A stretch of DNA of 64,000 nt from a plasmid. The number at the start of each line of letters is the position of its first letter. Within the stretch, counting starts at the first letter, position 1. Made by a program: the position numbers and the translations under genes. Positions 41,814-58,243 of the stretch are shown here, piece by piece. The stretch is from sequence record NZ_CP128202.1. One strand, written 5' to 3'. The notes beneath the pieces are model-generated. The model did no database searches. It was not told the origin of the DNA and saw nothing but the letters and a program-made list of their open reading frames with translations.

Positions 41814-42867
41814 GGCCTTGTTGCTTAAATCAATGGAACTAAATCAGGAAGCTACGATCTGATCGGCTACACCCATCAATCGTCGTAGCCTCATGCCTAA
41901 ACCTCGTTACAAAACAACTAACTGGAAGCAGTACAATAAATCCTTAATCAACCGTGGTTCTCTGGCCTTTTGGATTGATGAGGAAGCGATAGCTGAGTGG
42001 AAGCAAAACAAACAAGGCAAGCGTGGTAGATCTCGCCGATTCAGCGACTTAGCCATTACTACCGCACTGATGGTGAAACGCGTTTTCTCTATGCCCTTGA
42101 GAGCGCTGCAAGGTTTTCTAGACTCCGTATTTAAGCTGGCTAACATCCCGCTTGTTTGCCCGCACTACACCTGTATAAGCCGCCGAGCTAAGGAAGTTGA
42201 AGTTTCATTTAAAACCAAAACCAGAGGAGCAATACAACATCTGGCCATTGATGCCACTGGCCTCAAGGTTTATGGCGAAGGTGAATGGAAGGTCAAGAAG
42301 CATGGAACTGATGGGAAGCGAAGAGTCTGGCGTAAGCTGCATATCGCGGTAGATACAAGCACCCACGAAATAGTCGCAGCAGAGCTGAGCTTATCTAACG
42401 TAACTGATGCCGAAGTGCTCCCCAACTTACTCAAGCAAACACGTCGTAAAATCATTGAGATATCAGGCGATGGCGCTTATGACACAAGGAATTGCCATGA
42501 TGCCATACGGATCAAGCGAGCTGTTCCGCTCATCCCGCCAAGAGAAGGAGCAGCCTTCTGGGAACAAGGGCATCCTCGTAACTTAGCGGTAGGTTGCCAG
42601 AAGCTCTATGGCTCCAACAAGAAGTGGAAAAAGCGGTATGGCTATCATAAGCGCTCTCTATCAGAGACCGCAATGTACCGAGTAAAACAGCTGCTAGGTG
42701 GGAAATTAAGCCTGAGGAACTACAACGCTCAAGTTGGCGAGACTTACGCTATGATTAAAGCCCTGAATAAGCTTACAGGGCTTGGTATGCCTGAAACACA
42801 GTATATCGGTTAAGAATTAAGCACAATGGGGCAGGCATGGCTTATCTATGAATTAAGCAACAAAGCC
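41814..42867 (+). mobile_element. IS5-family (IS903-group) insertion sequence, copy B
   Basis: 1054 bp. IRs ggccttgttgcttaaatc and gcttaattcatagataagcc...caacaaagcc-type ends. No flanking 9-bp duplication. Confidence 0.9.
41893..42813 (+). CDS. IS5-family transposase (306 aa)
   Basis: About 96% identical to copy A, and about 99% to copy C. Confidence 0.95.
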   Translation: MPKPRYKTTNWKQYNKSLINRGSLAFWIDEEAIAEWKQNKQGKRGRSRRFSDLAITTALMVKRVFSMPLRALQGFLDSVFKLANIPLVCPHYTCISRRAKEVEVSFKTKTRGAIQHLAIDATGLKVYGEGEWKVKKHGTDGKRRVWRKLHIAVDTSTHEIVAAELSLSNVTDAEVLPNLLKQTRRKIIEISGDGAYDTRNCHDAIRIKRAVPLIPPREGAAFWEQGHPRNLAVGCQKLYGSNKKWKKRYGYHKRSLSETAMYRVKQLLGGKLSLRNYNAQVGETYAMIKALNKLTGLGMPETQYIG

Positions 42868-43650
42868 TTTAATAATATCAATTTCGCTGAACCATTCCTG
42901 TGTGCTCCAATCGCTCGTATTTTGACTAGTTCGAATCATCACCGTTTGACCAATCATCGTTTGAGCTTTGTTCAAAACTTCTAATGCAGACTCTTTGTAT
43001 TTAGTAATACTCATTTTTCTGGTATCGCCTGTACTATTTTTGATGATAATAATTGAACCTACTTTCGATGCTGATACCAGTGTTCCAAAGTCATTCCACA
43101 CAAAATTGTTCATTTCTAAAACCTTATAAACGGTTGTACGACTGCATCCTAACTCTTTACTAATAGCATGCTTGTTCATTCCCTGCTCAGCAAACGCTTC
43201 TATGCGTTCATGTAGTTGCTTATCAGGAAATCGTCCGATGTGCCTGCCTTCAGCTTTAGCTCTCTCCCTGCCCTCGTTACAGCGCTGTAAGATACGTTTT
43301 CTTTCCATTTCTGCGAAAGCGGAAATCGTTGTGTAAATGACCCGTCCCACATCACTATTGATGTCTAAATCCCCGAGGTCATGAAACACCAGTCCAGCCC
43401 CCTTATCTGAAAGCTCATCGGCAATCTTAAGAGCATCTATCGTATTACGTGCAATGCGGTCCACTTTAGTTACATGGATAACATCACCTTCACGGGCAAA
43501 CTCGATCAAGCGAGAAAGCTCTTCACGATCAGCCGACTTTCCGCTGGCTTTTTCCTGGAATACTTTCTCACATCCTATCGATTGAAGTTGCTCAAGCTGA
43601 ACATTCAGAGTTTGGTCGTCAGAACTAACACGGGCATAGCCGATTTTCAT
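42853..43650 (-). CDS. serine recombinase (resolvase/invertase family); C-terminus may be altered by IS5 copy B
   Basis: N-terminal catalytic domain MKIGYARVSSDDQTLNVQ with Ser10 and an HTH. The last codons lie inside the IS5 end at 42853-42867. Confidence 0.8.
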   Translation of the reverse strand: MKIGYARVSSDDQTLNVQLEQLQSIGCEKVFQEKASGKSADREELSRLIEFAREGDVIHVTKVDRIARNTIDALKIADELSDKGAGLVFHDLGDLDINSDVGRVIYTTISAFAEMERKRILQRCNEGRERAKAEGRHIGRFPDKQLHERIEAFAEQGMNKHAISKELGCSRTTVYKVLEMNNFVWNDFGTLVSASKVGSIIIIKNSTGDTRKMSITKYKESALEVLNKAQTMIGQTVMIRTSQNTSDWSTQEWFSEIDIIKGFVA

Positions 43651-43850
43651 GATAGAGGCCTTAAAGTGAACAATAAGATAAGCAGTAATTAGTGTACATG
43701 TTCACTAATAATAATTAAGACTAACTGAACAGTTTTGTGATGGGTGCTTCATTATGTCCATAAAGGTACACCTTTATGGACATTTAGTCATAACATTCGA
43801 ATAGTTTAAATCGTTCGATTCGTTTATAATTAACCCAAAGGAGAGTAACT

Positions 43851-44096
43851 ATGCAATCATTAACAGCAAATACAGCAAAAACCAAATTTGGCGATTTACT
43901 GATGAAGGTTCAGCGTGAACCCGTGCAAATCAGTAAAAATGGCTCACCGGTTGCGGTGATGATGTCCTGTGAAGAATATGAGCAATTAGAAGCACTCAAG
44001 ATGATGCTGGTTAAATCTCGTTTTGAACAGGCAGAAATTGATATCAGGAATGGCGATCTGGTCGATGGTGATGAATTTATGAAATCTCTGGCTTAA
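43851..44096 (+). CDS. Phd/YefM-family antitoxin
   Basis: 81 aa. The motif KTKFGDLLMKVQREPVQISKNGSPVAVMMS is typical of the Phd/YefM family. Confidence 0.85.
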   Translation: MQSLTANTAKTKFGDLLMKVQREPVQISKNGSPVAVMMSCEEYEQLEALKMMLVKSRFEQAEIDIRNGDLVDGDEFMKSLA

Positions 44097-44110
44097 GGGT
44101 TAATGTTTTC

Positions 44111-44413
44111 ATGAGCAGTTATAAGCTTTCACCTTTAGCCCAGTCTGATCTCACTGATATTCGTCGTTACACCATAGAACATTGGGGCAGTACTCAATGG
44201 TCCGTCTATTTTAATGAATTACAGGAATCGATGTCATTGCTGGCAAGTAACGAACTGATCGGAATTCAGATCCCGGAAATGGGAGAGCGATACTACCGTT
44301 TTCCTCTGAAGCACCATGTGATTTATTACATCACTCAGGAAGACCATATCGTTATCGTCGCTGTGCTGGGTAAGCATATGTCTCCTGCAAAACATTTTGC
44401 GTCTATTTCTTAA
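44111..44413 (+). CDS. ParE/RelE-family toxin
   Basis: 100 aa. 15-bp gap from the antitoxin. ParE-like RelE/ParE fold motifs (HHVIYYI..., IVIVAVLGKHM). Confidence 0.85.
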   Translation: MSSYKLSPLAQSDLTDIRRYTIEHWGSTQWSVYFNELQESMSLLASNELIGIQIPEMGERYYRFPLKHHVIYYITQEDHIVIVAVLGKHMSPAKHFASIS

Positions 44414-45012
44414 TTTTTTAATTTCCGGCGAATAATATAATCACGCAATGTGCTCGGTGCTTCATCTATCAACTTTGCCGTAGGCCGGATACCTAGCCCC
44501 ATTTTGAGGTATTTTTCGATTTGATCACGTTTAGCGTCCAGCTTTAATTTATTTGCCGGCCCTTTAGGTCTGCCAAGAATTACCCCATCCTTTTTGCGTG
44601 CCGCCAGTGCTTCTTTGGTCCGCATCGAGATAAACTCGCGTTCAATCTCAGCGGCGAGCCCAAGCACTGTTGCGGTAATTCTGGCCTGCATAGAGCCGTC
44701 CAGCTGCATGTTCTGTTTGGCTATGTACACATCGATTTTTTTCTCCATGCATACTTCCAACACTTCAAGTACCTGTAAGGTAGAACGGGCGATACGGCTC
44801 ACTTCGGCAAAAATGAGTTTATCTCCGGATGTCATGCCCTCTATCAGAGCTCCGAGTTTGCGCTCGTGCCATTTTTTCTTGCCTGTGACGATGTCTTCAA
44901 CAAAGCAAAGACCGGATAAACCAACTTTGTTGGCGTATTCATAGATACCGTGCTTTTGGTTAGCAACATCCTGGCTGTCGGAAGATACTCTAAGGTAGGC
45001 GTAGTGGGTCAT
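44410..45012 (-). CDS. serine recombinase / resolvase (200 aa)
   Basis: MTHYAYLRVSSDSQDVANQ catalytic-Ser motif. C-terminal HTH. Plasmid multimer-resolution type. Confidence 0.85.
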   Translation of the reverse strand: MTHYAYLRVSSDSQDVANQKHGIYEYANKVGLSGLCFVEDIVTGKKKWHERKLGALIEGMTSGDKLIFAEVSRIARSTLQVLEVLEVCMEKKIDVYIAKQNMQLDGSMQARITATVLGLAAEIEREFISMRTKEALAARKKDGVILGRPKGPANKLKLDAKRDQIEKYLKMGLGIRPTAKLIDEAPSTLRDYIIRRKLKN

Positions 45013-45099
45013 GGCAATCTCCTTTTGTTCAGGAGTGTTATAACAATCCCAGACATAAAAAAGGTGTGCGATTACCTGGATTGTGACCTTTAAAAAATA

Positions 45100-45620
45100 A
45101 AAAGAAGAAAGAAATGTAATTGTTATTGTTGTGGTTAACTGTGTAAATCTTTGATTTTCCAGTTATCCACATCAGCTATAAAGATCTATAGATAACTATT
45201 AAAACTATACAGACTATAAATCTATAAGATCTATAGTTTATGTAACGTACTGATTATTAATAATAAAAATAGCATTTATGATCCTATTTTAGGTATTTAG
45301 ATAACACTATTCAGGTTGAAATGATCTTATTTCAGGTGTGGTTGATCACTTATCAGGTGAATAGATGACACATTTCAGGTGTTAATGATCGTATGTCAGG
45401 TGTTTAGATGACAGTTTTTAGGTGTCCGGAAGTCAGATCAGGCACTTACTGAGCATGGCGGATGTATTACAGCGATTACTACACCTGATTTCTGTCTTTG
45501 ATACCGCTTAAGTATCACATTTTAGGTGGATCTCGTTCTTTACACCTAAAATGTGTCATACATCACGTGGATATACCTTATTTATGTCCGTTGTGGGAGA
45601 TAAGCACCTAAATTATGTCT
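45100..45620. repeat. iteron-type replication origin
   Basis: At least seven direct repeats, period about 21-22 bp, consensus TGATCnnaTTTCAGGTGt, with GATC inside most repeats. Inverted copies at 45481-45620 (acacctgatttctgtc, acacctaaaatgtgtc, gcacctaaattatgtc). DnaA box TTATCCACA at 45163-45171. AT-rich ctataga/ctataa repeat block at 45175-45240. Confidence 0.65.
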
Positions 45621-45621
45621 G

Positions 45622-46716
45622 CTAGTACTCTGGGTTGTTACTGATTTCTGACAGGGTTTCTATCTTATCCAGCAGCGAATCAACTTCATTCTGAGTGTTT
45701 TCTTCTTGTTCTGCTTGTTGCTTAAGGTGACGTTTCGATAAGCTCTCTTCCACTTTGATGGCGTGTTCTTCTTTCCCTATGTAACGATAAGCAATCGCCA
45801 GGGACTCGAGCTCTGCTTTAGAAAGGCGAATGTTGTTTTGCAGCCTTTTAAGCTCAAGTTCCCGAATTGTTTTCAGTGCGTCATGCTGATTGAGTTCGTC
45901 TACAGTGCCGAGCTTTATCCAGCGGAACAGGAACTTGATCCCAGTGATGGTCCGGCCTTTCTTGATCACTTCAAATCCTTTTTCTCCGCTATCGCTTTCG
46001 AGAAATAGAAGTTCTTTTCGGATCTGTGGATGCTCAGAGAGTTCCTTAATGCTTTCACGAATACAGCGCTTCATGAATACGCTGTTGTTCTTAAAAGAAG
46101 TCTTATCCTTTTTAAGCTTCCCTGCTTCATTAAGGAGGCCAAAGACGCCTTTCAGCTCGTCGAGCTTTTGCTGGTGCATTTCAAAGCCTTTGTCTTTGAA
46201 GCGGCTCAGCAGCTCATAAAGGCGCTTGGAGTATTCTTTTTTTACATCAAAGAAATTACGGGTGTTGATCAAGGCAAATCCCTGATTGTACTCGATGTAT
46301 TCAGATTTAAGCATGTCGTTAGGAACCATGGTTAATACACCATTTTTATAGGCAATATGCTTAAACAGAGGACGATAGTCGAACTCTGTATCTCCTTTTC
46401 TGGATTCGATTTTGATACCGATTTTACGGCTGGCCAGACGATTAGCTACCGGGCTTAAGTTACTGCCAATGTGTTTGGATTCAACGCCTAACCATTCTGA
46501 TAACTGGTGTGAAGTGAATTCGTAATGTGGAGTGTTGGTATCCCAGTCAGCCGCTTTCATATGAGCCACCATCAGCGCAAACATATCCGCTTCCCTGGCT
46601 GAAAGATCCTGACGGCTGAATACCAGCTGATGACCTTTCTTGATGTGCTTTGGCAGGTTGTCACTGACGACAGGATAGTAATATTGTTCTTCGCTCATGG
46701 TTTCCATCCAAGACAT
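45622..46716 (-). CDS. repA: plasmid replication initiator (RepA, iteron-binding type)
   Basis: 364 aa, immediately adjacent to the iteron array. Size and context match Rep_3/IncA-C-type initiators. The family assignment rests on context and recall, not a motif match. Confidence 0.65.
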   Translation of the reverse strand: MSWMETMSEEQYYYPVVSDNLPKHIKKGHQLVFSRQDLSAREADMFALMVAHMKAADWDTNTPHYEFTSHQLSEWLGVESKHIGSNLSPVANRLASRKIGIKIESRKGDTEFDYRPLFKHIAYKNGVLTMVPNDMLKSEYIEYNQGFALINTRNFFDVKKEYSKRLYELLSRFKDKGFEMHQQKLDELKGVFGLLNEAGKLKKDKTSFKNNSVFMKRCIRESIKELSEHPQIRKELLFLESDSGEKGFEVIKKGRTITGIKFLFRWIKLGTVDELNQHDALKTIRELELKRLQNNIRLSKAELESLAIAYRYIGKEEHAIKVEESLSKRHLKQQAEQEENTQNEVDSLLDKIETLSEISNNPEY

Positions 46717-47641
46717 AACTTAGGTTAATTATTACATAATATAGGTGAGCTGAACAAATTAATACCTGGATTGTGTCACATAAAATTTGACAGATATATT
46801 TCTCTTTTGAGGCGGCGCAAAAACAGGCGTGTAATTGTTTTGATCCTCGCTGTTTAAAGATCAGATCTTCGATCTCAGCATGGATCTAAAAGAGATGCAT
46901 AAATGAAAGTTTTTCCCCCTCAATTATGTCCGGTTCTTACATGCCGGTCGTTACGGGAAAAGACGCCAGCGACAGTAAATAAATGGGCGGCCATTGTGCT
47001 TGTACAATCAAAGAAAATGTAAGTGACAACGTGATGTCGTCTTGACGGGTGACGCCTGAGTTTTGGTTTTAACTTACTCAGGATAAACAGGTTCTACGGG
47101 TGATGATGACCCTGCCTTGCTGTTAGGTTGATTAATTTTTAACACAAACCAGTAAAGGAAACGGAAGAGAGTAACGCCTCGACCTGCGATGGAGTGGCGA
47201 ACCATGTGACTAAGCCCAGCCCTAACTAATCTGTCACAAATTTACGCACCTGATAAAACATCACGAAGAAAAACCAACATCTTAAATATTCCTGGATGGG
47301 AGAAGACAGGGTTGATGCTAACGCTTTTATGTGGCATCACCCAGCCCCGTCATAGACTTCCTATGTGCGAAAAATACGGTCGTTAATTTTAATCATCTAC
47401 CCTAATCATCATCACTGTCACTTATCATCCTATTGTTTACCCCTTTCTTTCGATTAAAAACCCGCGACGCTGTGCGAGATTAACCTGTGTCCCCTGCCCT
47501 CCCGGATTGAGACGAGAGCTGGCTCCACTTTGTTCAATATACAACACCATTACATTTTTATTTCGGGTGAGTCGCAGGGAATTTGCTCACGCTTTTTTTA
47601 TTTCTCTTACCTTGTATGTTGTAGCGGTCAGGAAGAAGAGT

Positions 47642-48364
47642 ATGCGATTTTTAAAACTTAGAACCGATCATAAACGCCAGCGAAAAGACGGGTCTCGTTA
47701 TGTGACACCTTTAATCGTAGATACCCCTCGTCGCTTTGCGCCAAGCCGGGATCGAAAAGAAACCAGCTTACGCCGAACCCAGTGTCAGCTGATAACCGGT
47801 GCGCATGATTCGGGTAAAAGCCGGTGGCTCACCCGCCTGCGTGACAGCCGGCACGAGATCTGGGGCAGTAAACCACAACCGGTTTTGCTGGAAGGCCTGA
47901 TGCCGCTTTCCAGCTGGGTGGAAGTGAAAGGGATTGAACAATGGTACGAAAATTGTCACGAAGAAGACGCCTGTTTTACTCCCTGGAGCAAGCTCAACCT
48001 GCAACTCAAAGCGGATTTACTGGCTGATTACCTGGTTGAGACTCAATCGCTGCTGTTCATCGACGATGCTCACAAGCTGACAGGACGTAAAGCACAGATA
48101 GCGCGTAAATGTCTGCTGTCAGCAAAAACCTGGCTGATGGCCTGCAGTGAAGAAGGACGCTTGCCTCCTTCTATTCGCCCTATTGTTGAAAGGCGTGAGC
48201 CTCAACGTATCAATCTGGAAAGTGACGTGAGTTACGACACAACGAAAGCCCTGATCTGGTTCATGGTTGCCTTATGTGTCGTTGCCGGCGCCTGGGAAGC
48301 GGGGGCTGTGATTGGGGGGCTTCAGATGTTGGGCAATGGACGGAGGTCTACCCGTGCAGATTAG
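47642..48364 (+). CDS. small P-loop NTPase with C-terminal TM helix (about 240 aa from MRFLKL)
   Basis: Walker A LITGAHDSGKS, Walker B LLFIDDAH, C-terminal hydrophobic helix ALIWFMVALCVVAGAW. GC-rich gene in an otherwise AT-rich context. Confidence 0.4.
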   Translation: MRFLKLRTDHKRQRKDGSRYVTPLIVDTPRRFAPSRDRKETSLRRTQCQLITGAHDSGKSRWLTRLRDSRHEIWGSKPQPVLLEGLMPLSSWVEVKGIEQWYENCHEEDACFTPWSKLNLQLKADLLADYLVETQSLLFIDDAHKLTGRKAQIARKCLLSAKTWLMACSEEGRLPPSIRPIVERREPQRINLESDVSYDTTKALIWFMVALCVVAGAWEAGAVIGGLQMLGNGRRSTRAD

Positions 48365-49103
48365 AGCACCCTGGATGTTACTTGGGATACTGGCTGTTAG
48401 CCAAAGCTATGCGAATGACTGGGGGATCGATTCTCCCTGGAAGGAACCTGTCGCACCTCCTCCGGAAATAAAACCATTCGTGTTACCTACTCTCACAGGA
48501 GAAGCCCCACATTACAACACCCCTGCTCCGGCTTTAAAACCTGCCCCTAAAATCGACCCTGATGTTATTTTTCAAACCGTTCTGAATTGCTACCCGGAGA
48601 AGAGTAAATTTAAGCTGGACTTAAGTCTGGTCGCGGGAATGAAAACCAATCTTGACGAGTACAACAGTGATGACTGGCCGGAAATCTCCGAGCACTATGT
48701 TGGGATTGTCGGCAAGATGCCGCTCTATTCCACGACAGAACAGTCACGGGAACGCCAGTGGGAGTATCAGCGTCGTACCTCAACCGCAACTTCGGTGGCG
48801 GCGTTTGCTCAGGCCCTTGCTGACCGTAATTATGCGTATCGTCTGATGGGACTGTATTTATCTCTCGAGGCTCGCTCACAGCAGCGTGTGGCTCAGGGGG
48901 TGGCAAGCGTTAATGAGCAAGTCGCATTACTTGAAAAGGTCGCGGGCTCTCATCGCAATGTTCTGGCGCATGAAGCCAAAATAGTAGAGCACCGGTTAGC
49001 ACTGGTTGCACTCTGTGAAGACAGCTACAGTAAGAGGGTTAATCAGTACTTGCTGGACTTAGCGTTTCTTCCTCCTCATCAGGCGGAACATCAAAGCAAA
49101 TGA
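48357..49103 (+). CDS. hypothetical secreted protein (start uncertain, GTG 48357 or ATG 48375)
   Basis: N-terminal MLLGILAVSQSYA signal-like segment. Pro-rich then helical C-terminal half. Overlaps the end of the upstream P-loop gene. Confidence 0.35.
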   Translation, partial: QIRAPWMLLGILAVSQSYANDWGIDSPWKEPVAPPPEIKPFVLPTLTGEAPHYNTPAPALKPAPKIDPDVIFQTVLNCYPEKSKFKLDLSLVAGMKTNLDEYNSDDWPEISEHYVGIVGKMPLYSTTEQSRERQWEYQRRTSTATSVAAFAQALADRNYAYRLMGLYLSLEARSQQRVAQGVASVNEQVALLEKVAGSHRNVLAHEAKIVEHRLALVALCEDSYSKRVNQYLLDLAFLPPHQAEHQSK

Positions 49104-49573
49104 AGTGGCTCAATCATGGTCTCATCGCTGGCGCTGTTTGTGCCGTTGTCTCGCCACCTCATGTACCCATATGCATTGCAGGAGCCACCGCTCCAGACTG
49201 GATTGAATACGTTGTTAAAGTGTTTGGTCACAATATCAAGCATCGTGGCACTACCCATATTTTTACCCACTGGCTTATCGTTGCCCTCGTCTTCACATTT
49301 GTCTGGGACTATCAGGGGGTAGGAATGGCGTTCGCATGGGGTGGTGTCAGCCATATCCTGACCGATGCCATGACCGTTTCCGGTGTTCCTTTTTCTCCCT
49401 ACAGTGACAGACGTTTCCATCTGTTTGGTGGACGGTTCCGGACCGGTGACCCGGTGGAATATGCCATCTCTGCTGGCGTTGTGATTGTCTGTATCGCTTT
49501 GTCTCATATCTCCGGAGGGCAAGGTTTGCTCCATTTTTTTATGACTGGGCCGGTATGTATGAGCGCGGATTAA
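49100..49573 (+). CDS. membrane-bound metal-dependent hydrolase (DUF457/YdjM-like)
   Basis: 157 aa. Conserved His pattern (APDWIEY, HRGTTH, GGVSHILTD) across three to four TM segments. Start overlaps the upstream stop (ATGA). Confidence 0.55.
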   Translation: MKWLNHGLIAGAVCAVVSPPHVPICIAGATAPDWIEYVVKVFGHNIKHRGTTHIFTHWLIVALVFTFVWDYQGVGMAFAWGGVSHILTDAMTVSGVPFSPYSDRRFHLFGGRFRTGDPVEYAISAGVVIVCIALSHISGGQGLLHFFMTGPVCMSAD

Positions 49574-49725
49574 TTGATGCTCTGGAGTGGAAAACAAACC
49601 GGTTCAGGCTGATTTAAATGGGCTGAAAGTTGTCAATATTCAGGCTGAATATCTTTTGGTTTTCGCTCCCGGTTCCATTATCCTAACCCCTTGGTTGATA
49701 AGTTGTTTGCAGTTAGAAGAGTGAG

Positions 49726-50427
49726 ATGGGCATTAATGTTTCCAAATCAAAACTGGTGTCACTGACCGATGCCCATGAGCGACTGGTTGTCACCCACCCG
49801 GATAAAAATCCGGTGGAGTATAACCTCGGCTTAGAGAAATACCTGACGGCGGTTTTTCAGCGTAAGAAAGCCCGGAACAGGACCGGAGACGGTAATCCGC
49901 TCATTTACGCACTGAAGAACATGCACAGGTTCCGTATTTCGGATGAAGACAGAGCGTCTCTGTTTGGATTGATGAAGTCCATTATTGCACGCCATTATCA
50001 GGGGGAAGTATTTGATCGTATTCTGCCTTTGCCCTCTTCAAAACCGGTGGTGTTCTGGGTGGCTCAGGCTTGTCAGGAAGCCCAGGGCGTGCCGGTTGAG
50101 CGTAATGCGTTTGTCAAAGCGACCAATGCCAATGTGCTGGCCCAGCTGCAGCAGGTGGAGAGCCACAAAGAAATTATTGAACTGAGGAAGTTACTGGAAG
50201 CGCGCAAACCGAATGCGGTTTTTAGTATGAAAGACTTGTCGCAGTTTCAGCGTCAGTTTGTTGAGCCTGTCCGTCTGAACCCGTTTTTTACGCCCGAAGG
50301 CAGAGTGCTTTTGGTGGATGATTTGGTTTCCTCAGGTGCAACGTTTAAATCCGGCTATCGGTCGGTGAAAAACAAACATCCGGAAGTGGATATAGAATGC
50401 TTGTCGTTGCTTGGTCCGGTGACTTGA
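49726..50427 (+). CDS. hypothetical protein with C-terminal phosphoribosyltransferase-like motif
   Basis: 233 aa. The C-terminal RVLLVDDLVSSGATF resembles the type I PRTase PRPP-binding motif (VLLVDDVxTTGxT). Confidence 0.4.
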   Translation: MGINVSKSKLVSLTDAHERLVVTHPDKNPVEYNLGLEKYLTAVFQRKKARNRTGDGNPLIYALKNMHRFRISDEDRASLFGLMKSIIARHYQGEVFDRILPLPSSKPVVFWVAQACQEAQGVPVERNAFVKATNANVLAQLQQVESHKEIIELRKLLEARKPNAVFSMKDLSQFQRQFVEPVRLNPFFTPEGRVLLVDDLVSSGATFKSGYRSVKNKHPEVDIECLSLLGPVT

Positions 50428-50715
50428 CTCGGTAACGCAGGGACGTATAATTGAACATACAGACCGTACATGTGCTCTATGGTCTTTAAAGAAGATATGA
50501 GCGAAAGCTTATGAGCCCGAGCTGCACCCTGAAACGAGGTCAGACCATAAGGGTTGAGTATCGTTTAGTTAGGCATCGGCTAACACCATTAATTTATTAA
50601 TGACAACAGCGCCCGGTTTATCCGGGCGCTGTTGTATCTGCAGTTTACCACTCGTTTTATTCTCCGGAATTTTGTCAATATTCAGGCTGAATATTGACAA
50701 ACTCCGCTCTGATAT

Positions 50716-51612
50716 TCATTCATATTTCAAGGTCTTAACCGTTTCTTTTGAGCAGGCGGAGAAGTGACGGGAAAGATCACTGCGGATACGGTCTGAGGCG
50801 TAATACATAGTGTATCGATACTCCAGCCCCGGGCTGAAAGGACGGGTCACTACGTTATCTTTTGGCCACAGATGGGCGTTGAAAGGATCCAGCAAAGCAA
50901 GACAAAGCCCGTTGGCAACCAGACCGTATCCGGACAGCGATCGCTGAGTCGCGAACTGGAAGCGGACATCGATGTTGTGTTCCTCGAGCATGGCTTTATG
51001 CCGGTTCCATTCTATGCCGTCTTCATCGACCAGTTTTAGCAGGTTTTCTCCGTTCAGATCCTGAGGGTTAATCACCTCTTTCTCCGCAAGCCGATGGCCT
51101 GCCGGCATCACACATACCCAGTTCACAGTGATCAGCGGCTCATCAATAAAGCCAAAATCGTAGCTGACATGGTTGGTAATAATCAGATCGTATTTGGCGT
51201 GACGCAATCCCTGCATTAGCTGGTTGACGCTGTCAGAGAGCAGGCTTACCTGAACATCCGGATACGAAGTTACAAAGTCTTTGATGATGCGCGGTACCAC
51301 CCAGGTAGCCAGAGCGGGCGTAGCCCCGATCGATAAACGGCCGCGTGAGGAATGACGAAGATTTTCCGCCACACTTTCCAGGTGCTTAATGCCGTGAAAG
51401 ATGTTTTTCACCTCATCGTAAAACGCCATCGCTTCCGCAGTCGGGTGCATCCGGCCCTTTTCCTTACGGAATAATTCAAACTCGACGCCTTCCTGCAAAT
51501 CCTTGATGAGCCGGCTGACAGAAGGCTGGGAAATACGCAGCTCTTCGGCTGCCCGGGAAAATGACCCGGTCTGAATGACCGAGAGAAAAGCCTGAAGCTG
51601 TTTATATTGCAT
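50716..51612 (-). CDS. LysR-family transcriptional regulator
   Basis: 298 aa. N-terminal HTH (FSRAAEELRISQPSVSRLIKDLQ). LysR substrate-binding domain. Confidence 0.9.
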   Translation of the reverse strand: MQYKQLQAFLSVIQTGSFSRAAEELRISQPSVSRLIKDLQEGVEFELFRKEKGRMHPTAEAMAFYDEVKNIFHGIKHLESVAENLRHSSRGRLSIGATPALATWVVPRIIKDFVTSYPDVQVSLLSDSVNQLMQGLRHAKYDLIITNHVSYDFGFIDEPLITVNWVCVMPAGHRLAEKEVINPQDLNGENLLKLVDEDGIEWNRHKAMLEEHNIDVRFQFATQRSLSGYGLVANGLCLALLDPFNAHLWPKDNVVTRPFSPGLEYRYTMYYASDRIRSDLSRHFSACSKETVKTLKYE

Positions 51613-51762
51613 GAGTAATACCTATAGCATTTTCAAATAATACTATACAAAAATGGCCATTGAATAAATAAGGTATGTGTGGAACATTGCCCGTACACCG
51701 GATGAATTATTTCCCGGAAAGCAAAACGGATTTACTTGGACATACAGAAACGGAGAACTGTC

Positions 51763-53217
51763 ATGAGTACGATGAGCCAGGAGCAGAGCCGCTCCCGGGA
51801 AACTGAGATGCCGAGCCGTTGGTATCAGCGCTTCCCTGATCCTATGGTACTGATTTTTTATATTCTGCTGGTTGCCAGTGCGCTGACCTGGCTGGTACCT
51901 AAAGGTGCCTACGATACCGAAAGCGTCGACGGACGCCAGCGGGTTATCGCCGGTTCCTTTCATTACTTAACTGAGAGTGACGCACCGGCCGGTGTGTTTA
52001 GCGTCATCAATAAGCTGTTCGATATTTTTGTCGCCATCCCGCAGGGGCTGGTTCAGTCGGCGCAATACCTGTTTATTGTGTTCATTGCCGGAGGACTGTT
52101 TAACATTCTTTACCGCACCCACGCACTGGAAAACTTCGTCGGTTCTTCTGTTAAGCGTATCGGTCTGGAACGCGGTAATCTGCTGATCTGGTTATCCACT
52201 TACCTTTATGGTGTATTCGGGATTGCAGTGGGTTTTGAAAACAATATTGCGCTGGTACCGGTCGCGCTGCTGGTTTCGAGTGCCCTGGGTTATAAGAACC
52301 TGGTTGGGGCCTGCATTGCGATCGGGGGGATTGGAATTGGTTTCGCTCTGTCACCGATTAACCCTTACACCGTCGGTGTGGCGCAGAATATTGCCGGGCT
52401 GCCGATTTTCTCAGGCGCTCTGGTCCGTTGTATTTTAACCTTTGTCTGTCTGTCGATGCTTGCCTGGTACATCACTGCGGTTGTCGCTCCCAAAGCGCGC
52501 AGGGAAGATACCGGACAGGACGGGTTATCTTCTGAACTCAGCAGCTACAGCATGAGCATGCAGGACAAAGCCGTCATTCTGATTTTTCTGGCCGGTATTG
52601 TGGTTATTGCCGGATGTTCCTATCTGGCGGGTACTGGCGCGCTGGGCCGCAGCTGGTACATTAAAGAAATCACGGCGGTATTCCTGCTGATCTCTATTGC
52701 GATTGCCGCTACCTGCCGTATCGGTGCCAATCAATACGTGAAATACATGATTGAAGGGGCATCCGGCGTGACTGGAGGAGCTCTGGTTATCGGTCTGGCA
52801 GCTTCGATTAAAGTGGTGCTGGAAGACGGCCAAATCATTTATACCATAGTGCACACCTTTAACCTGCTGATTGGCTACGTACCGGACGCGCTGACAGCGG
52901 TCACTATTAGTGTGATTCAGGGGTTCATTAACCTGTTTATTCCGAGTGGTTCAGGACAGGCTCTGGTGACCATGCCTATTCTGATCCCGCTGGCAGACCT
53001 GATTGGTATCAGCCATCAGGTGATGATTTTGGCGTTTCAGGTCGGTGACGGCATCACTAACCTGATCATCCCGACCTCAGGCGGTACGCTGGCCATGCTG
53101 GCTCTGGCCAAGGTGAGCTTTTCCAATTGGGTGAAAACCATCTTCCCGGTCATTGTCATGGCATATGTCTTAAGCTGGGTATGTCTGGTAATAGCCCAGT
53201 ACACCAACTGGTCATAA
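51763..53217 (+). CDS. YfcC-family transporter (putative amino-acid/carboxylate carrier)
   Basis: About 484 aa, more than 10 TM segments. Divergently transcribed from the LysR gene. YfcC/DUF1063-like topology and Gly-rich re-entrant segments. Confidence 0.7.
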   Translation: MSTMSQEQSRSRETEMPSRWYQRFPDPMVLIFYILLVASALTWLVPKGAYDTESVDGRQRVIAGSFHYLTESDAPAGVFSVINKLFDIFVAIPQGLVQSAQYLFIVFIAGGLFNILYRTHALENFVGSSVKRIGLERGNLLIWLSTYLYGVFGIAVGFENNIALVPVALLVSSALGYKNLVGACIAIGGIGIGFALSPINPYTVGVAQNIAGLPIFSGALVRCILTFVCLSMLAWYITAVVAPKARREDTGQDGLSSELSSYSMSMQDKAVILIFLAGIVVIAGCSYLAGTGALGRSWYIKEITAVFLLISIAIAATCRIGANQYVKYMIEGASGVTGGALVIGLAASIKVVLEDGQIIYTIVHTFNLLIGYVPDALTAVTISVIQGFINLFIPSGSGQALVTMPILIPLADLIGISHQVMILAFQVGDGITNLIIPTSGGTLAMLALAKVSFSNWVKTIFPVIVMAYVLSWVCLVIAQYTNWS

Positions 53218-53266
53218 ACAAGAGACCGCAGCGTGGCTGGCACCGCGCTGCTGTATGGAGATGTAA

Positions 53267-54172
53267 GTGAATACAGTGAAAAATATCGCGTTGATCGGCG
53301 GCACCCACGGTAATGAGTTATCCGGGATTTATCTGGTGAAAAAGTGGCAGCAGAACCGGACACTGACGCAGTGGCCTGAGCTCAGCATCACTACCAAAAT
53401 TTCAAATCCGAGAGCCTGTGAGAACAGTGTGCGTTATATGGAATCGGATCTGAACCGGGAATTCTGTCAGGCTGATCTGGACGATAACAGTAAGGTCGGT
53501 TACGAGCAGTTGCTGGCAAAAAAGCTTAACGCTGAACTGGGGCCAAAAGGTGCGTCACCGTTTGATTTCATTATCGATCTGCACAACACCACCTCTAACA
53601 TGGGAGCGTGTCTGATGCTGTTGAAAAAAGATGATTTCAACTTAAAGCTGGGCGCGTATGTTAAAAGCCGCATGCCGGAATCGAACATCTACTTCCAGGA
53701 CAATATCCCGGAGAACAAACGCAGCTTTCTGATCACCATCGCAGAGCAGGGGGTGACGGTCGAAGTCGGCGCACAGCCAAATTCAGTGTTGCAGCATAAA
53801 ACGCTGGAGCTGATGGAAACCATGACCGCGCACATCCTGAACTTTTGTGAGCAGTATAATCAGGGCTCTGAACTGGACCTGCCGGACGGTTATGAGGCCT
53901 TCCAGTACTGCGGAGACCTGAAGCTGCCGATGACCGAAAACGGTGAACGAAACGGAATGGTGCTGAAATCGATTGATCAGCGTGACTTCTCTCCGGTTGA
54001 ACCGGGGCAGGCGATCATGGAGACCTTCGATGGCCAACTAATTTACTGGGAAGGCGATTATACTGCTTATCCGTTGTTCATCAATGAAGCGGCATATCGA
54101 AAAAGCAGCAACGCGATGAGCCTGTCAAAGAAAATCACGATAAGCGGGTATCAGGCCTGTCTTACTGAGTAA
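53267..54172 (+). CDS. succinylglutamate desuccinylase/aspartoacylase-family (AstE/AspA, M14-like) zinc hydrolase
   Basis: 301 aa. N-terminal IALIGGTHGNELSG zinc-ligand motif and a later His/Glu pattern typical of the AstE/AspA family. Confidence 0.75.
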   Translation: MNTVKNIALIGGTHGNELSGIYLVKKWQQNRTLTQWPELSITTKISNPRACENSVRYMESDLNREFCQADLDDNSKVGYEQLLAKKLNAELGPKGASPFDFIIDLHNTTSNMGACLMLLKKDDFNLKLGAYVKSRMPESNIYFQDNIPENKRSFLITIAEQGVTVEVGAQPNSVLQHKTLELMETMTAHILNFCEQYNQGSELDLPDGYEAFQYCGDLKLPMTENGERNGMVLKSIDQRDFSPVEPGQAIMETFDGQLIYWEGDYTAYPLFINEAAYRKSSNAMSLSKKITISGYQACLTE

Positions 54173-54308
54173 AATTTTCACGAATGAAAAACGTCTGAAG
54201 CCGTGTTATTACTTGGTTCTTCAGGCTTTTTTTGTTTGTGGTTGCGCTGATGTTTAGGAACAATAAAGTTTGTACACTAAATCAATTTTGGAATAATAAA
54301 GTTTGTAC

Positions 54309-55362
54309 GGCTTTGTTGCGTAATTCGATGGAACTAAATCAAGAAACTATGATCTGAGCGGCTACGCCCATCAATCGTCGTAGCCTCATGCCTAAACCTC
54401 GTTACAAAACAACTAACTGGAAGCAGTACAATAAATCCTTAATCAACCGTGGTTCTCTGGCCTTTTGGATTGATGAGGAAGCGATAGCTGAGTGGAAGCA
54501 AAACAAACAAGGCAAGCGTGGTAGACCTCGCCGATTCAGCGACTTAGCCATTACTACCGCACTGATGGTGAAACGCGTTTTCTCTATGCCCTTGAGAGCG
54601 CTGCAAGGTTTTCTAGACTCCGTATTTAAGCTGGCTAACATCCCGCTTGTTTGCCCGCACTACACCTGTATAAGCCGCCGAGCTAAGGAAGTTGAAGTTT
54701 CATTTAAAACCAAAACCAGAGGAGCAATACAACATCTGGCCATTGATGCCACTGGCCTCAAGGTTTATGGCGAAGGTGAATGGAAGGTCAAGAAGCATGG
54801 AACTGATGGGAAGCGAAGAGTCTGGCGTAAGCTGCATATCGCGGTAGATACAAGCACCCACGAAATAGTCGCAGCAGAGCTGAGCTTATCTAACGTAACT
54901 GATGCCGAAGTGCTCCCCAACTTACTCAAGCAAACACGTCGTAAAATCATTGAGATATCAGGCGATGGCGCTTATGACACAAGGAATTGCCATGATGCCA
55001 TACGGATCAAGCGAGCTGTTCCGCTCATCCCGCCAAGAGAAGGAGCAGCCTTCTGGGAACAAGGGCATCCTCGTAACTTAGCGGTAGGTTGCCAGAAGCT
55101 CTATGGCTCCAACAAGAAGTGGAAAAAGCGGTATGGCTATCATAAGCGCTCTCTATCAGAGACCGCAATGTACCGAGTAAAACAGCTGCTAGGTGGGAAA
55201 TTAAGCCTGAGGAACTACAACGCTCAGGTTGGCGAGACTTACGCCATGATCAAAGCACTGAACAAACTTACAGGGCTTGGTATGCCTGAAACTCAGTATA
55301 TTGTATAAAAGTCGCTCAACTTTAGGAGGTTTGGTTTCTCGTCTGAATTACGCAACAAAGCC
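54309..55362 (+). mobile_element. IS5-family (IS903-group) insertion sequence, copy C
   Basis: 1054 bp. IRs ggctttgttgcgtaattc and gaattacgcaacaaagcc. Same orientation as copy B. Confidence 0.9.
54388..55308 (+). CDS. IS5-family transposase (306 aa)
   Basis: Differs from the copy B protein at only 2-3 residues. Confidence 0.95.
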   Translation: MPKPRYKTTNWKQYNKSLINRGSLAFWIDEEAIAEWKQNKQGKRGRPRRFSDLAITTALMVKRVFSMPLRALQGFLDSVFKLANIPLVCPHYTCISRRAKEVEVSFKTKTRGAIQHLAIDATGLKVYGEGEWKVKKHGTDGKRRVWRKLHIAVDTSTHEIVAAELSLSNVTDAEVLPNLLKQTRRKIIEISGDGAYDTRNCHDAIRIKRAVPLIPPREGAAFWEQGHPRNLAVGCQKLYGSNKKWKKRYGYHKRSLSETAMYRVKQLLGGKLSLRNYNAQVGETYAMIKALNKLTGLGMPETQYIV

Positions 55363-55612
55363 GATTATTGATGCTAATGGCCCTAAGGGCATGGATAAAT
55401 TCAAAGGACAGCTGGCTCATAATATGTTGTCTATTCAGAAATATTTACCTGAATCGTCACGGTTTGAAGTTGTCGATAAAGGATTGTTTCTGACATTGCC
55501 ATTAACTTGGGCCGAGGAAAACCATGACTTGAAAGATAACTTGGAAAATTTACTTTCCGTGTTAACGCCTCTTAAATTAGCTCAGAAATCAAGCTCCATT
55601 GATGCTGGTTAA
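55363..55612 (+). pseudogene. 3-prime remnant (about 83 codons) of a gene cut by IS5 copy C
   Basis: The reading frame starts exactly at the IS boundary with no start codon: IIDANGPKGMDKFKGQLAHNMLSIQKYLPE... Confidence 0.3.
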
Positions 55613-55633
55613 ATTTTGTGAATAAGCCGGGAA

Positions 55634-55652
55634 CCCCGGCTTAACTTCTGCT
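55634..55652. terminator. hairpin between the convergent remnant gene and parB
   Basis: aagccgggaaccccggctt. Followed by a (ttattgc)x3 tandem repeat. Confidence 0.45.
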
Positions 55653-55661
55653 GCTTATTGC

Positions 55662-56732
55662 TTATTGCTTATTCAGTACCGAATGAATAGCTTTATCCAA
55701 CTCATCCTGAACCTCTTTCGACAATCGTCCGAACTCGTAAGAAAAGTTACGGCCTTTTACCCGCTTACGGGCAAACATACCTTTGCTGTCGAAATGGGCC
55801 AGGGGAGTCACTTCGGCTTTGTCCTTATCTTGCTTTTCTTCTTCTATCTTGAGCTCAGCTTTGATGGCAGAAACAATAGCGTCTTTCTGATCCTGAAGGT
55901 CGTATTCAGCCTGAATATTGACAATATGCTTTTCGATTTTATTTACGAAGCCTGAAAGCTGCCTGTTGTCCTGGCAAACCTTCATCACCTTATCAAGTAA
56001 GGTATAGTCAGGATGGGAAAGGGCGTTTGCAACTGGGAATAACTGGACGAGCTTTTCATCAACGCTGGCCGCCTTGATTGCTTTACTTACACCGGCCTGG
56101 CTAAGACCAACTTGTTTTGCAATTTCAGCCTGAGTGAGTTCTTCATTCGAAGCTTTGATTGCTAAACATTGTTTGCCTATTTCCCGAAGGTTGTGCTCTT
56201 TGGCTGTCTGCAATTGTTTGGCTAATGCTTTTGCATCGGCAACCGAAATATCATCCTGAGTAACCAGAATACGGAACGACTCTACGCGACCTTCCTGCAG
56301 CAGGAACCAGGCGCGACGACGAGAGCCATCCAGCACATCAATTTTACCATCGACTTCGCGGCCAACTGCCGGGTAGAACTGTTGAAACTCGAGTGAATTT
56401 AAATCTGAAAGTGACTCTGGCGTCAATAATGACTGGTCCCGGCCGTTTACATCAAAAGTAACGACGGTTTCATCACGAACCTGTTCATGTGACAATGTCA
56501 CTTCATTAAAGGTTGCCGTATTGCCAGATGAAAGCTGCCAGACCATGCTCTGGCCAACTGAATCGATACCAAATTGCTCTTTAAGGAATGCCGCCGCGTT
56601 TTCACCGGCTTTCTCTATTTCAGTAGTCAGTTGCTGAGTTAAATTAGTCAGGTTTGCTTTTGCTGCCGATTGTTGTGCTTCTGCAGATCCAGGAGCATTA
56701 CCCAAAGGGCTGCCACCACGTTTTTTGGCCAT
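55662..56732 (-). CDS. parB: ParB-family partition protein
   Basis: 356 aa. ParB N-terminal domain plus an HTH (LTQAEIAKQVGLSQAGVSKAIK). Its start overlaps the stop of parA. Confidence 0.8.
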   Translation of the reverse strand: MAKKRGGSPLGNAPGSAEAQQSAAKANLTNLTQQLTTEIEKAGENAAAFLKEQFGIDSVGQSMVWQLSSGNTATFNEVTLSHEQVRDETVVTFDVNGRDQSLLTPESLSDLNSLEFQQFYPAVGREVDGKIDVLDGSRRRAWFLLQEGRVESFRILVTQDDISVADAKALAKQLQTAKEHNLREIGKQCLAIKASNEELTQAEIAKQVGLSQAGVSKAIKAASVDEKLVQLFPVANALSHPDYTLLDKVMKVCQDNRQLSGFVNKIEKHIVNIQAEYDLQDQKDAIVSAIKAELKIEEEKQDKDKAEVTPLAHFDSKGMFARKRVKGRNFSYEFGRLSKEVQDELDKAIHSVLNKQ

Positions 56733-57931
56733 TATGCTTGCTCCTGTTCACGCCAGATATTAAGGATGTCACGCTGAATTTGGCTTATGACTTCATAACC
56801 ATTTTGCTGCGCGGTCTGGAAAGTTGATTTGCTCTTAGGGTATTCACTCTTTGACATATCGAAAACGGTCGAGAGCAGGGAGGAGGCTTGTCTAATCGCT
56901 TCGCTGTGTTTGAATTCTTTCGAATACAGATACGGACCAAAGTGATCATAAAGGCTGTTCATCAGCTCGGTAGTTGTTGAGCTATCACGATGGTTAGTCA
57001 GCAATATTTTCATGAAGTCATAACCTTCGTGATTCGCATTGGCCAGCAACGCCCAGACCTGAGGAATGTAACTAAAATATGAGCATGTTGCATCGATATC
57101 GTTTTCAGTAATTGATAACGGGAACACCACACTGGTTGCTGCAAAGTACGCGTTGTACGTTGCGTAACCTAAAGAAGGTGGCGTATCGATGATGATGATG
57201 TCGAACTCCTCTTTCACGGCATCAATGATATCGTCCAGAATAGAGTAAGGGGAGGGCAGTTTGTGGCTGAACACTTGTTCATGAAACCACCCTTCGATCG
57301 CCCGGTCACTCTGTGCCGCAGGCAGGATACGCAAATTTGGAATAGTGGTTTCAAGGAATGCCTCGGATACCGCCTGTTCAAATGTCTCGCCTTCATCCAA
57401 ATCAAAATTACGCATAATAAGGTCACCAACAGAAAGGCTTCCTTCCTGATCGGCTTCTGGTGCGTAGTACATGGATAATGTTGCCTGACCATCCATATCA
57501 ATTAAACCAACACGATATTCCTGATGGAACTCGGTTGCCAAACCTGATGCAACAGTTGCGGCAGATACGGTCTTACCAACACCACCTTTCTGGTTCTGGA
57601 TCACTATGACTTGAGCTGACTGCTTTTCACTACGACTGAATTTTGGCTCTTTACGTAAAGTCTCAGGTAATAAATCACGTACGCGATACATTTCTTCGAT
57701 ATCAATAGACCATTGCGAGTCTTCATGACGACGAGGGTCAATCTCTGCAGCTGTTACGTACTTATCTAAGGTTTTGGCATCAATGCCCAGATAGGCTGAA
57801 GCCTCTGCGCGAGTGAAATTACGCAGTTCTTTACGGTGATTAGCAAGCAAACGTAAGTTACGTCGTTTGATGTAGGCATCTGCACCTTGCTTAAGTGACT
57901 GAAATATTGTGGTGGTCTGCTGGGAATCCAT
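56732..57931 (-). CDS. parA: type Ia ParA partition ATPase (SopA/P1-ParA-like, N-terminal HTH)
   Basis: Deviant Walker A KGGVGKT. N-terminal extension of about 100 aa with HTH. Likely start MDSQQ at 57931 with an AAGGAGG RBS. The supplied ORF extends to 57991. Confidence 0.9.
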   Translation of the reverse strand: MDSQQTTTIFQSLKQGADAYIKRRNLRLLANHRKELRNFTRAEASAYLGIDAKTLDKYVTAAEIDPRRHEDSQWSIDIEEMYRVRDLLPETLRKEPKFSRSEKQSAQVIVIQNQKGGVGKTVSAATVASGLATEFHQEYRVGLIDMDGQATLSMYYAPEADQEGSLSVGDLIMRNFDLDEGETFEQAVSEAFLETTIPNLRILPAAQSDRAIEGWFHEQVFSHKLPSPYSILDDIIDAVKEEFDIIIIDTPPSLGYATYNAYFAATSVVFPLSITENDIDATCSYFSYIPQVWALLANANHEGYDFMKILLTNHRDSSTTTELMNSLYDHFGPYLYSKEFKHSEAIRQASSLLSTVFDMSKSEYPKSKSTFQTAQQNGYEVISQIQRDILNIWREQEQA

Positions 57932-57964
57932 TTCTGCCTCCTTATAGGAATTAGAAACAGTATA

Positions 57965-58002
57965 TCCCTTATTTTTTGATGTGTGTATCAAAAAATAAGG
58001 GA
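57965..58002. promoter_or_regulatory. palindromic operator upstream of parA
   Basis: tcccttattttttgat-gtgtgt-atcaaaaaataaggga. Perfect 16-bp arms with a 6-bp spacer, 34 bp upstream of the parA start. Confidence 0.55.
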
Positions 58003-58243
58003 GTGGTGTGAACTGCTATTAGTTTTTGCACAAATTTAATACTAATTAATGTAAGTCGCACCGGGGATGTATGCGCTATTTCTTGCGAGCCTCGATTTTA
58101 GGGGGGCGTCCAAGTTCCTCATTGGGCTCAATACACTCATCTTCGAGCCAATCCAAGCAAATATGGGGGTAATGACCAAACCCCCGATTTGTTCTCTTGA
58201 AATCATTTATGGGGTCTGAAGCCCAATGGGACGAAAACGTACG

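Follow-up and report, generated by a model that had tools for sequence, protein, structure and literature searches.

The window analyzed here is a 64,000-nucleotide (nt) stretch of a plasmid (sequence record NZ_CP128202.1), in which a 15-kb region (positions 42853 to 58002) combines replication, partition, and maintenance genes and lies near several genes of chromosomal type. On the strength of sequence comparison, we hold with high confidence that this region is the backbone of an ordinary, previously sequenced circular plasmid of Vibrio furnissii and Vibrio fluvialis, approximately 76 to 86 kb in size. The plasmid core is already in public databases, and only one part of the region, an unannotated structured element between the replication gene repA and a conserved three-gene operon, could add new knowledge.

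Closed circular plasmids carry the same backbone and cargo

The closed circular V. furnissii plasmids NZ_CP040989.1 and NZ_CP064380.1 (76,098 bp) cover 100% of the 15-kb region at 99.7% identity. Another closed circular V. furnissii plasmid, pVFBJ05 (NZ_CP128206.1; 85,626 bp), is 99.6% identical to the full region, and a segment of pIDH5335-1, a 370-kb IncC plasmid of V. fluvialis, is 99.9% identical to the 15-kb module. RefSeq copies of the key proteins are found in V. furnissii plasmids: RepA as WP_038152856.1, ParA as WP_004729612.1, and ParB as WP_004729611.1. In a per-segment megablast search, most of the remaining window was assigned to V. furnissii plasmids at 98 to 99.9% identity, with 8 to 31% of the queries uncovered by these plasmids and no chromosomal flank seen.

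Gene order agrees as well. The genes gdhA, BCCT, MscS, EAL, methyl-accepting chemotaxis protein (MCP), mobI(A/C), DUF3150, YqaJ, and traN follow one another on V. furnissii plasmids in the order of the window, and gdhA, BCCT, and MscS are annotated on the closed 76- to 86-kb plasmids. NZ_CP040989.1, NZ_CP064380.1, and pVFBJ05 all share the gene order of most of the window; they differ from it in their insertion sequence (IS) and transposon insertions, and pVFBJ05 carries a resistance island. Judged by these alignments, the window is a mosaic of the NZ_CP040989.1/NZ_CP064380.1 and pVFBJ05 versions.

The original prediction had noted gdhA, mscS, a BCCT transporter, and chemotaxis or cyclic di-GMP genes in the window, and Pfam searches did recover gdhA, BCCT, MscS, MCP, and EAL. 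It had proposed on this basis that the replicon was either integrated in a chromosome or a megaplasmid or chromid. This proposal does not survive the comparison: closed circular V. furnissii plasmids of 76 to 86 kb carry the same genes in the same order, and the "chromosomal-type" genes are therefore plasmid cargo. By the same sequence comparison, gdhA, BCCT, mscS, MCP, and EAL are accessory cargo gathered with IS5 and Tn3-family elements. Since the closed plasmids hold the same content, no part of the window requires a chromosome, and on this evidence the window is a mid-sized, IS- and Tn3-laden mosaic plasmid and neither an integrated replicon nor a chromid or megaplasmid. Core genes combined with chromosome size or chromosomal linkage, which would mark a chromid or an integrated replicon, were not found here; the content is that of 76- to 86-kb plasmids.

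It is very unlikely that the window forms part of a megaplasmid or chromid with captured core metabolism. Metabolic and transport genes are indeed among the cargo, and the near-identical segment of pIDH5335-1 shows the module within a 370-kb plasmid. The flanks of the window (TraN, YqaJ, DUF3150, MobI, MCP, and EAL), however, are covered to 92% by pVFBJ05 and to only 6% by pIDH5335-1, the closed relatives measure 76 to 86 kb, and there is no sign that the cargo is essential or single copy. One observation does count against our reading where the source replicon is concerned: pIDH5335-1 is a cointegrate that contains one copy of the module. The least credible explanation of all is insertion of the plasmid core into a chromosome, e.g., via IS5 recombination, with the housekeeping genes as chromosomal neighbors; recombination substrates exist (three full IS5 copies and one partial copy in the window, and Tn3-family elements) and at least one transfer of the module, into the 370-kb IncC plasmid, has taken place, but closed circular plasmids match most of the window (all but 8 to 31% of the queries) with the housekeeping genes in identical order, no chromosomal flank was seen, and the annotation of these plasmids includes gdhA, BCCT, and MscS. 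We therefore read the plasmid core beside "chromosomal" genes as a case of cargo accumulation, not as an integration event or an emerging chromid.

A conserved structured element upstream of an AAA+ operon

The element and the operon that follows it are located as follows.

46936..47470, + strand: unannotated, conserved, structured non-coding element of ~540 nt (comparative folding)
47642..49573, + strand: three-gene operon encoding an AAA+ ATPase (47642-48364), a hypothetical protein (48354-49103), and a YdjM-like hydrolase (49100-49573)

Between repA and the gene that follows lie 940 bp, part of which the element fills; in relatives it appears as blocks of near-perfect identity. We found it in 31 PLSDB plasmids, none of which has an annotated feature there, and, when one genome of each species was scanned for its pattern, in 12 further Vibrionaceae contigs; the scan also gave 11 chance matches in high-GC genomes that nhmmer did not confirm. 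Its carriers belong to the genera Vibrio, Photobacterium, Grimontia, Veronia, Salinivibrio, and Parasalinivibrio; besides the window, they comprise loci L005-L016, L021, L024-L027, L032, L034-L036, L038, L039, and L041. In the Photobacterium/Grimontia group, it is lengthened at the 5′ end by a further hairpin that also covaries.

Covariation was assessed with RNAalifold and pair counting on 24 distinct sequences. The consensus structure comprises 56 pairs, 37 of which show compensatory double changes. Paired cells amounted to 93.5%, compared with 33 to 45% when the 3′ partners were slid by 1 to 3 columns, and the covariation score of 0.442 compares with 0.07 to 0.09 in the slid controls and 0.186 in shuffled alignments (0 of 500 shuffles reached 0.442). 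Several helices are long range, such as that between CGTGATGT (~47030) and ACATCACG (~47264); pairing of this kind speaks for a single strand that folds and against palindromes bound by protein. In the covarying helices, read on the + strand, G-U pairs outnumbered A-C mismatches 51 to 10; the strand that folds is therefore the + strand, which faces the downstream operon. Single-sequence folding energy was not significant on either strand (z = +0.49 on the + strand and −0.17 on the − strand), and Rfam gave no gathering-score match in the whole window, with only noise (E ≥ 0.98) in 44900-47700. It is covariation alone that makes the case for structure.

The operon lies downstream of the element in every locus examined and is 70 to 94% identical across Vibrionaceae genera. 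The other flank of the element consists of replication or recombinase genes, and the replication genes differ by plasmid: a Rep_3 gene, a RepB gene with a ParA-like protein gene, or a RepA-helicase-type pair. As the element is kept beside differing replicon types, it is not part of the Rep_3 system. The AAA+ protein (240 amino acids [aa]) has a weak match to Pfam AAA_22, and its AlphaFold2 model (pLDDT [predicted local distance difference test] 86) has Cdc6/ORC, RFC, RuvB, and MuB as its nearest folds, at low TM scores. The middle protein (249 aa) belongs to no known family, and the third is a YdjM-like metal-dependent hydrolase (Pfam YdjM) that is shorter than its 172-aa homologues. With the exception of this hydrolase, the operon proteins received no PADLOC, PHROG, or NCBIfam assignment, and single-sequence PDB searches with two of them returned nothing. 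Oceanospirillum, Endozoicomonas, and Marinospirillum have the operon as well, and there too it adjoins genes for replication or partition. Outside the Vibrionaceae, only the 3′ part of the element, consisting of TTTACCCCT, a small hairpin, and a T-run, was detectable upstream of the AAA+ gene (L045:1582-1702 and L047:3848-3911). The retention of this motif by itself suggests that it is a conserved terminator or attenuator module.

Most likely, the element is a structured RNA tied to the AAA+/hypothetical/YdjM operon. That it represents a previously undescribed class of large structured RNAs of Vibrionaceae plasmids, transcribed toward the operon and working with it, is a proposition on which the comparative data leave us evenly divided. 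More tentatively, our working model is a rightward RNA that would end at the terminator-like hairpin and serve the AAA+ operon either as its leader or as a partner. It could be a long sensing leader whose TTTACCCCT, hairpin, and T-run form an attenuator, or the RNA partner of the Cdc6/ORC-like AAA+ protein. If this is true, the element and the operon form a module that travels beside whatever replicon the plasmid uses.

Like OLE, ROOL, GOLLD, HEARO, and the pre-primer RNA II of the MRB origin, the element measures several hundred nucleotides, has many helices including long-range ones and invariant unpaired blocks, and is carried on mobile elements. Unlike these RNAs, it has no Rfam family, occurs only in Vibrionaceae plasmids, and is fixed upstream of the AAA+ operon. 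Large structured RNAs are rare. Comparative support for this candidate is strong, its genetic partner is constant, and its hosts, V. campbellii BAA-1116 among them, can be cultured.

MRB also provides an alternative, namely, that the element is an MRB-type RNA-primed origin or another cis-acting DNA site (an oriT or a single-strand initiation site) and not a regulatory or ribonucleoprotein RNA. The MRB origin is a non-coding, Vibrionaceae-restricted sequence of ~490 bp that yields a pre-primer RNA of at least 465 nt (PMC3035462). It is Rep independent and has a 68-nt antisense RNA I with a terminator flanked by A and T runs, and RNA I is its only conserved gene (PMC3035462). The similar size, the lack of coding capacity, the restriction to Vibrionaceae, and the long pre-primer RNA (PMC3035462) all recall the element, which moreover lies beside replication genes at all loci examined. 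We nevertheless consider an MRB-type origin, or another cis-acting DNA site, unlikely. All carriers examined encode a protein initiator of the Rep_3, RepB, or RepA-helicase type, an RNA I-like terminator with A/T runs is absent 40 to 100 nt from either end of the element, and a constantly adjacent operon contradicts the description of an origin without conserved genes besides RNA I. As for a cis-acting DNA site such as oriT, the carriers are typed as non-mobilizable.

No similarity to the element was found in pSIO1. The VBR1 oriV, a 570-bp AT-rich origin with four direct repeats that acts with vrp1AB (PMC12753305), was also considered and rejected: the element has no direct-repeat family wholly inside it, has a G+C content of ~44 to 49%, and lies beside a Rep_3 replicon.

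Replication origin and initiator

The replication region lies immediately to the left of the structured element.

45080..45278: AT-rich origin flank with a DnaA box and CTATA/AGATCT short repeats (45176-45241) that include two GATC sites
45279..45428, + strand: seven direct iterons of 21 to 22 bp (repeat family search; Tandem Repeats Finder [TRF] periods 22 and 43)
45481..45621: four more iteron-like copies, one direct and three inverted (repeat search)
45622..46698, − strand: repA, Rep_3-family initiator, 358 aa from the RefSeq start (Pfam; the open reading frame [ORF] reaches 46716)
46699..46890: predicted repA promoter/operator region with two iteron-like units (~46711-46750) and five GATC sites (46842-46886)

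A repA-type initiator had been predicted beside the iterons, and RepA indeed contains both winged-helix domains of the Rep_3 family, each above its cutoff: Rep3_N (PF01051; 82.9 bits, cutoff 22.4, E = 3.7e-23) and Rep3_C (PF21205; 28.8 bits, cutoff 21.1, E = 1.5e-6). The protein is 100% identical to WP_038152856.1 of NZ_CP040989.1, labeled "replication initiation protein," and the same accession is annotated in pVFBJ05. Together with type Ia ParAB, a toxin-antitoxin pair, and resolvases, this Rep_3/iteron origin supports the assignment of the region, from its sequence, to a low-copy-type plasmid core.

The iterons fall into two alternating subtypes, TGATC...AGGTG and GATRACA...AGGTG. At least seven iterons, each with a GATC site, had been expected; the seven units of 21 to 22 bp are there, but GATC is confined to units 1, 3, 4, and 6, and units 2, 5, and 7 have GATAA or GATGA in its place. 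The window contains 27 copies of the iteron core WTYAGGTR where 14.5 are expected, and nine of the 27 lie within 325 bp (45288-45612). The predicted inverted repeats and DnaA box were also found, the former as a 13-nt perfect inverted repeat (45516-45528/45543-45555) that is kept in relatives and the latter as a perfect box, TTATCCACA, at 45163-45171. The origin flank has AT-rich tracts at 45085-45130 and 45250-45278 and contains period-9 and period-17 repeats (TRF).

We aligned the origin with those of ED002, pFORC54, and pVIBHAR, whose modules are ~74% identical. Conservation is blockwise: the stretch with the DnaA box is invariant, as is the block GGTAACTGTGTAAATCTTTGATTTTCCAGTTATCCACAT, in the four plasmids, and the positions of all seven iterons, the four iteron GATC sites, and the inverted repeat are kept. 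The iteron-like units at the repA start are also present in the relatives, which fits autorepression.

Going by what is known of the Rep_3 family, RepA monomers would bind the seven iterons just 3′ of repA, host DnaA would bind the adjoining perfect box, and the two proteins together would open the neighboring AT-rich DNA as the origin fires. By binding the iteron-like units at the start of its gene, RepA would repress its own promoter, and the extra direct and inverted iteron copies may act in handcuffing-type copy control.

Against this placement of the origin stands the position of the array, which is 3′ of repA and not upstream; iterons downstream of repA could in principle be an incA-like copy-control array and not the start site. 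The seven repeats would then be a copy number and incompatibility locus, as in P1 incA, which likewise lies 3′ of repA, and initiation would occur elsewhere, e.g., in the GATC-rich DNA upstream of repA, where a second GATC cluster and two iteron-like units are found. We regard this as improbable. It is the array, and not the upstream region, that has the perfect, invariant DnaA box and the AT-rich tracts next to it, and the DNA upstream of repA is poorly conserved except for the operator-like units.

A marine replicon family

We searched RepA by tblastn against 72,556 PLSDB plasmids (E ≤ 1e-3). Approximately 70 plasmids encode relatives with more than 60% identity, and the matches listed above ~30% identity come only from marine genera (Vibrio, Photobacterium, Pseudoalteromonas, and Salinivibrio); more distant Rep_3 proteins occur in Firmicutes. 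IncC plasmids are common in enterobacterial genera. Escherichia, Klebsiella, and Salmonella were not among the 10 commonest host genera in the search, which gave no sign of an IncC RepA. With no enterobacterial genus among these top 10 hosts, the suggested kinship with IncA/C-type RepA is not supported, and close relatives are marine only. The same search lent no support to kinship with P1 RepA, and a single-sequence PDB search with RepA returned nothing. RepA has a full-length match to PHROG phrog_16861 (E = 3.5e-188). A phage origin was rejected, as neither RepA nor the structured element matches any of 50,697 phage records; the source of phrog_16861 is probably a plasmid or a prophage called in error.

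The backbone order (resolvase, Phd/ParE, resolvase, origin, repA, structured element, AAA+ operon) recurs at ~74% DNA identity in Vibrionaceae plasmids of ~30 kb. Carriers include V. campbellii BAA-1116 pVIBHAR, V. vulnificus pFORC54, p1-ED002 (Vibrio sp.), a plasmid of Vibrio sp. 09022, and V. alginolyticus; MOB-suite places pVIBHAR and p1-ED002 in rep_cluster_1874. In pFORC54, RepA is 88.5% identical and P1-type ParAB is present as well. The ~30-kb plasmids are smaller, however, have parAB far from rep, and keep pseudopilin genes downstream of the operon, whereas the window has lost the pseudopilin genes and gained cargo. This Rep_3 replicon family with alternating iterons is widespread in marine Vibrionaceae, and our search for an experimental study of it found none.

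The architecture shares several traits with P1: an iteron-binding initiator, DnaA boxes, a GATC-rich origin, iterons 3′ of repA, a type Ia ParA, a ParB with the P1 C-terminal domain (PF08775), and a palindrome upstream of parA. It differs in that GATC lies inside the iterons, while P1 has it in separate 7-mers, and in that P1-like parS boxes A and B were not recognized in the window. IncC likewise has iterons downstream of repA, but IncC plasmids were not retrieved with RepA as the query; pIDH5335-1 probably owes its IncC type to a second replicon in another part of its sequence. The window also contains mobI(A/C) (27001-27561, − strand) and a very large traN (1473 aa, within 36764-41185, − strand). 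MOB-suite found neither a relaxase nor a mating-pair system in the relatives, and the plasmid is typed as non-mobilizable; the two genes look like what is left of a conjugative backbone of IncA/C-like or pAQU-like type.

GATC sites and Dam methylation

GATC sites are concentrated around the origin, with seven in 45183-45436 (254 bp) and five in 46842-46886 (46 bp), compared with 3.2 per kb in the window. Two of them are AGATCT sites beside the DnaA box. The relatives have three GATC sites in the stretch that corresponds to the repA upstream region, and the positions of the four iteron sites are conserved across plasmids that are ~74% identical. P1 oriR requires methylated GATC, and at V. cholerae oriCII the binding of RctB to GATC-containing iterons requires Dam methylation. 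By analogy with these two origins, the placement of GATC sites (within four iterons, next to the DnaA box, and in the DNA upstream of repA) makes Dam/SeqA coupling plausible here, although the restriction of GATC to four of the seven iterons weighs against such control. V. cholerae oriCII is similar in being a Vibrionaceae replicon with GATC-containing iterons and differs in that RctB is not a Rep_3 protein and in the mixed GATC content of the iterons here. The replicon family, in which a Rep_3 protein is paired with alternating GATC and non-GATC iterons, would offer a simple system in which to ask whether iteron recognition depends on Dam in a replicon other than V. cholerae chromosome 2.

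The densest GATC cluster of the window is elsewhere, at 7131-7340 (seven sites in 200 bp), at the start of an apparently truncated transposase ORF (MSAAQPVIKRLDHLGL...).

Partition locus

The 15-kb module consists of two backbone blocks with an IS5 copy and ~5 kb of cargo of higher GC content between them, and the partition genes lie at its right end.

55662..56732, − strand: parB, P1-type centromere-binding protein, 356 aa (PF08775, E = 5.5e-37, 127.3 bits, cutoff 25)
56732..57931, − strand: parA, type Ia ATPase, 399 aa (Pfam AAA_31 and CbiA; NCBIfam partition RepA and SopA models)
57965..58002: perfect 16-6-16 palindrome, putative par operator (TCCCTTATTTTTTGAT-N6-ATCAAAAAATAAGGGA, arms 57965-57980 and 57987-58002)

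The prediction of type Ia parAB with a perfect 16-6-16 palindrome held, as PF08775, AAA_31, and the palindrome itself were all found. ParB also matches TIGR00180 (63.5 bits, cutoff 58.45). The parA ORF extends to 57991, and the RefSeq start is at 57931; depending on the start codon, the ATPase domain begins at about residue 105 to 127, after a long N-terminal extension. The arms of the palindrome are 100% complementary and lie 34 bp upstream of the annotated parA start. The palindrome is partly conserved in pHZ52-3 and pFORC54, with a nearly invariant parA-proximal arm.

By family analogy, the P1-type ParA/ParB pair would segregate the plasmid, with ParB binding a parS site, and ParA would repress the par operon at the palindromic operator. 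It counts against this picture that neither a repeat search nor alignment revealed a conserved repeat or a box A/B pattern downstream of parB that could be parS; the DNA there is not conserved in relatives, and an IS5 copy lies ~300 bp away. A complete low-copy core had been claimed. The rep, par, toxin-antitoxin, and resolvase genes are all present, but with parS not identified, completeness does not follow.

Recombinases and the toxin-antitoxin pair

Both serine recombinases and the Phd/ParE pair that had been predicted were identified by Pfam.

42853..43650, − strand: serine recombinase 1, 265 aa (Pfam Resolvase, E = 8.6e-38, and HTH_7)
43851..44096, + strand: Phd/YefM antitoxin, 81 aa (Pfam PhdYeFM_antitox, E = 2.1e-12)
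44111..44413, + strand: ParE toxin, 100 aa (Pfam ParE_toxin, E = 1.1e-15)
44410..45012, − strand: serine recombinase 2 of the resolvase/invertase type, 200 aa (Pfam Resolvase, E = 7.7e-29)

The antitoxin and toxin genes are 14 bp apart, their order and domains are those of a type II toxin-antitoxin system, and the RefSeq plasmid annotation agrees; Phd/ParE would mediate post-segregational killing. Both recombinases have the catalytic domain, and Pfam detected HTH_7 in recombinase 1 only. Recombinase 2 also matches an NCBIfam Mpi-family model (E = 1.3e-53, under the cutoff of that model) and keeps its position beside the origin in relatives. It is likely the multimer resolution enzyme adjoining the origin, where a serine resolvase would resolve plasmid multimers.

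Residues 1 to 179 of recombinase 1 are 80% identical to the 180-aa resolvase of pFORC54. Its tail (42853-43110) continues for 85 codons past the usual stop position and ends at the end of an IS5 copy (42867). Recombinase 1 is absent from the gene table of the RefSeq copies, and for this reason it may be marked there as a pseudogene. Between recombinase 1 and phd are two palindromes, ATTAGTGTACA/TGTTCACTAAT and ATGTCCATAAAGG-N4-CCTTTATGGACAT, at 43689-43710 and 43752-43781; either could be a res site or an operator of the toxin-antitoxin genes.

Insertion sequences and cargo

Two IS5-family copies and a cargo block complete the features of the region.

41814..42867, + strand: IS5-family copy A, with its transposase at 41893-42813 (Pfam DDE_Tnp_1_5 and DDE_Tnp_1; ends by self-BLAST)
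49726..54172: cargo block with genes for a phosphoribosyltransferase (PRTase)-like protein, a LysR regulator (− strand), a DcuC/NhaC-type transporter, and an aspartoacylase-family enzyme (Pfam and RefSeq)
54309..55362, + strand: IS5-family copy B, with its transposase at 54388-55308

By self-BLAST, copy A is 96% identical to copy B and 92% identical to 5620-6676. Copy A abuts the gene downstream of resolvase 1, which it probably truncated. The cargo block has a GC content of 0.49 to 0.51, compared with 0.40 to 0.44 in the backbone. The PRTase-like protein (49726-50427, + strand) has a weak PADLOC match to ShosT (E = 0.001) and may be a defense gene remnant.

Beyond the par operator, a Tn3-like terminal inverted repeat lies at ~58203-58240, ~200 bp from the operator. 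It is followed by a Tn3-family transposase gene (58244-61175, − strand) that is divided into two ORFs by a frameshift near 59184-59203. After this split transposase gene come a ParD/ParE pair and a resolvase, as in pVFBJ05.

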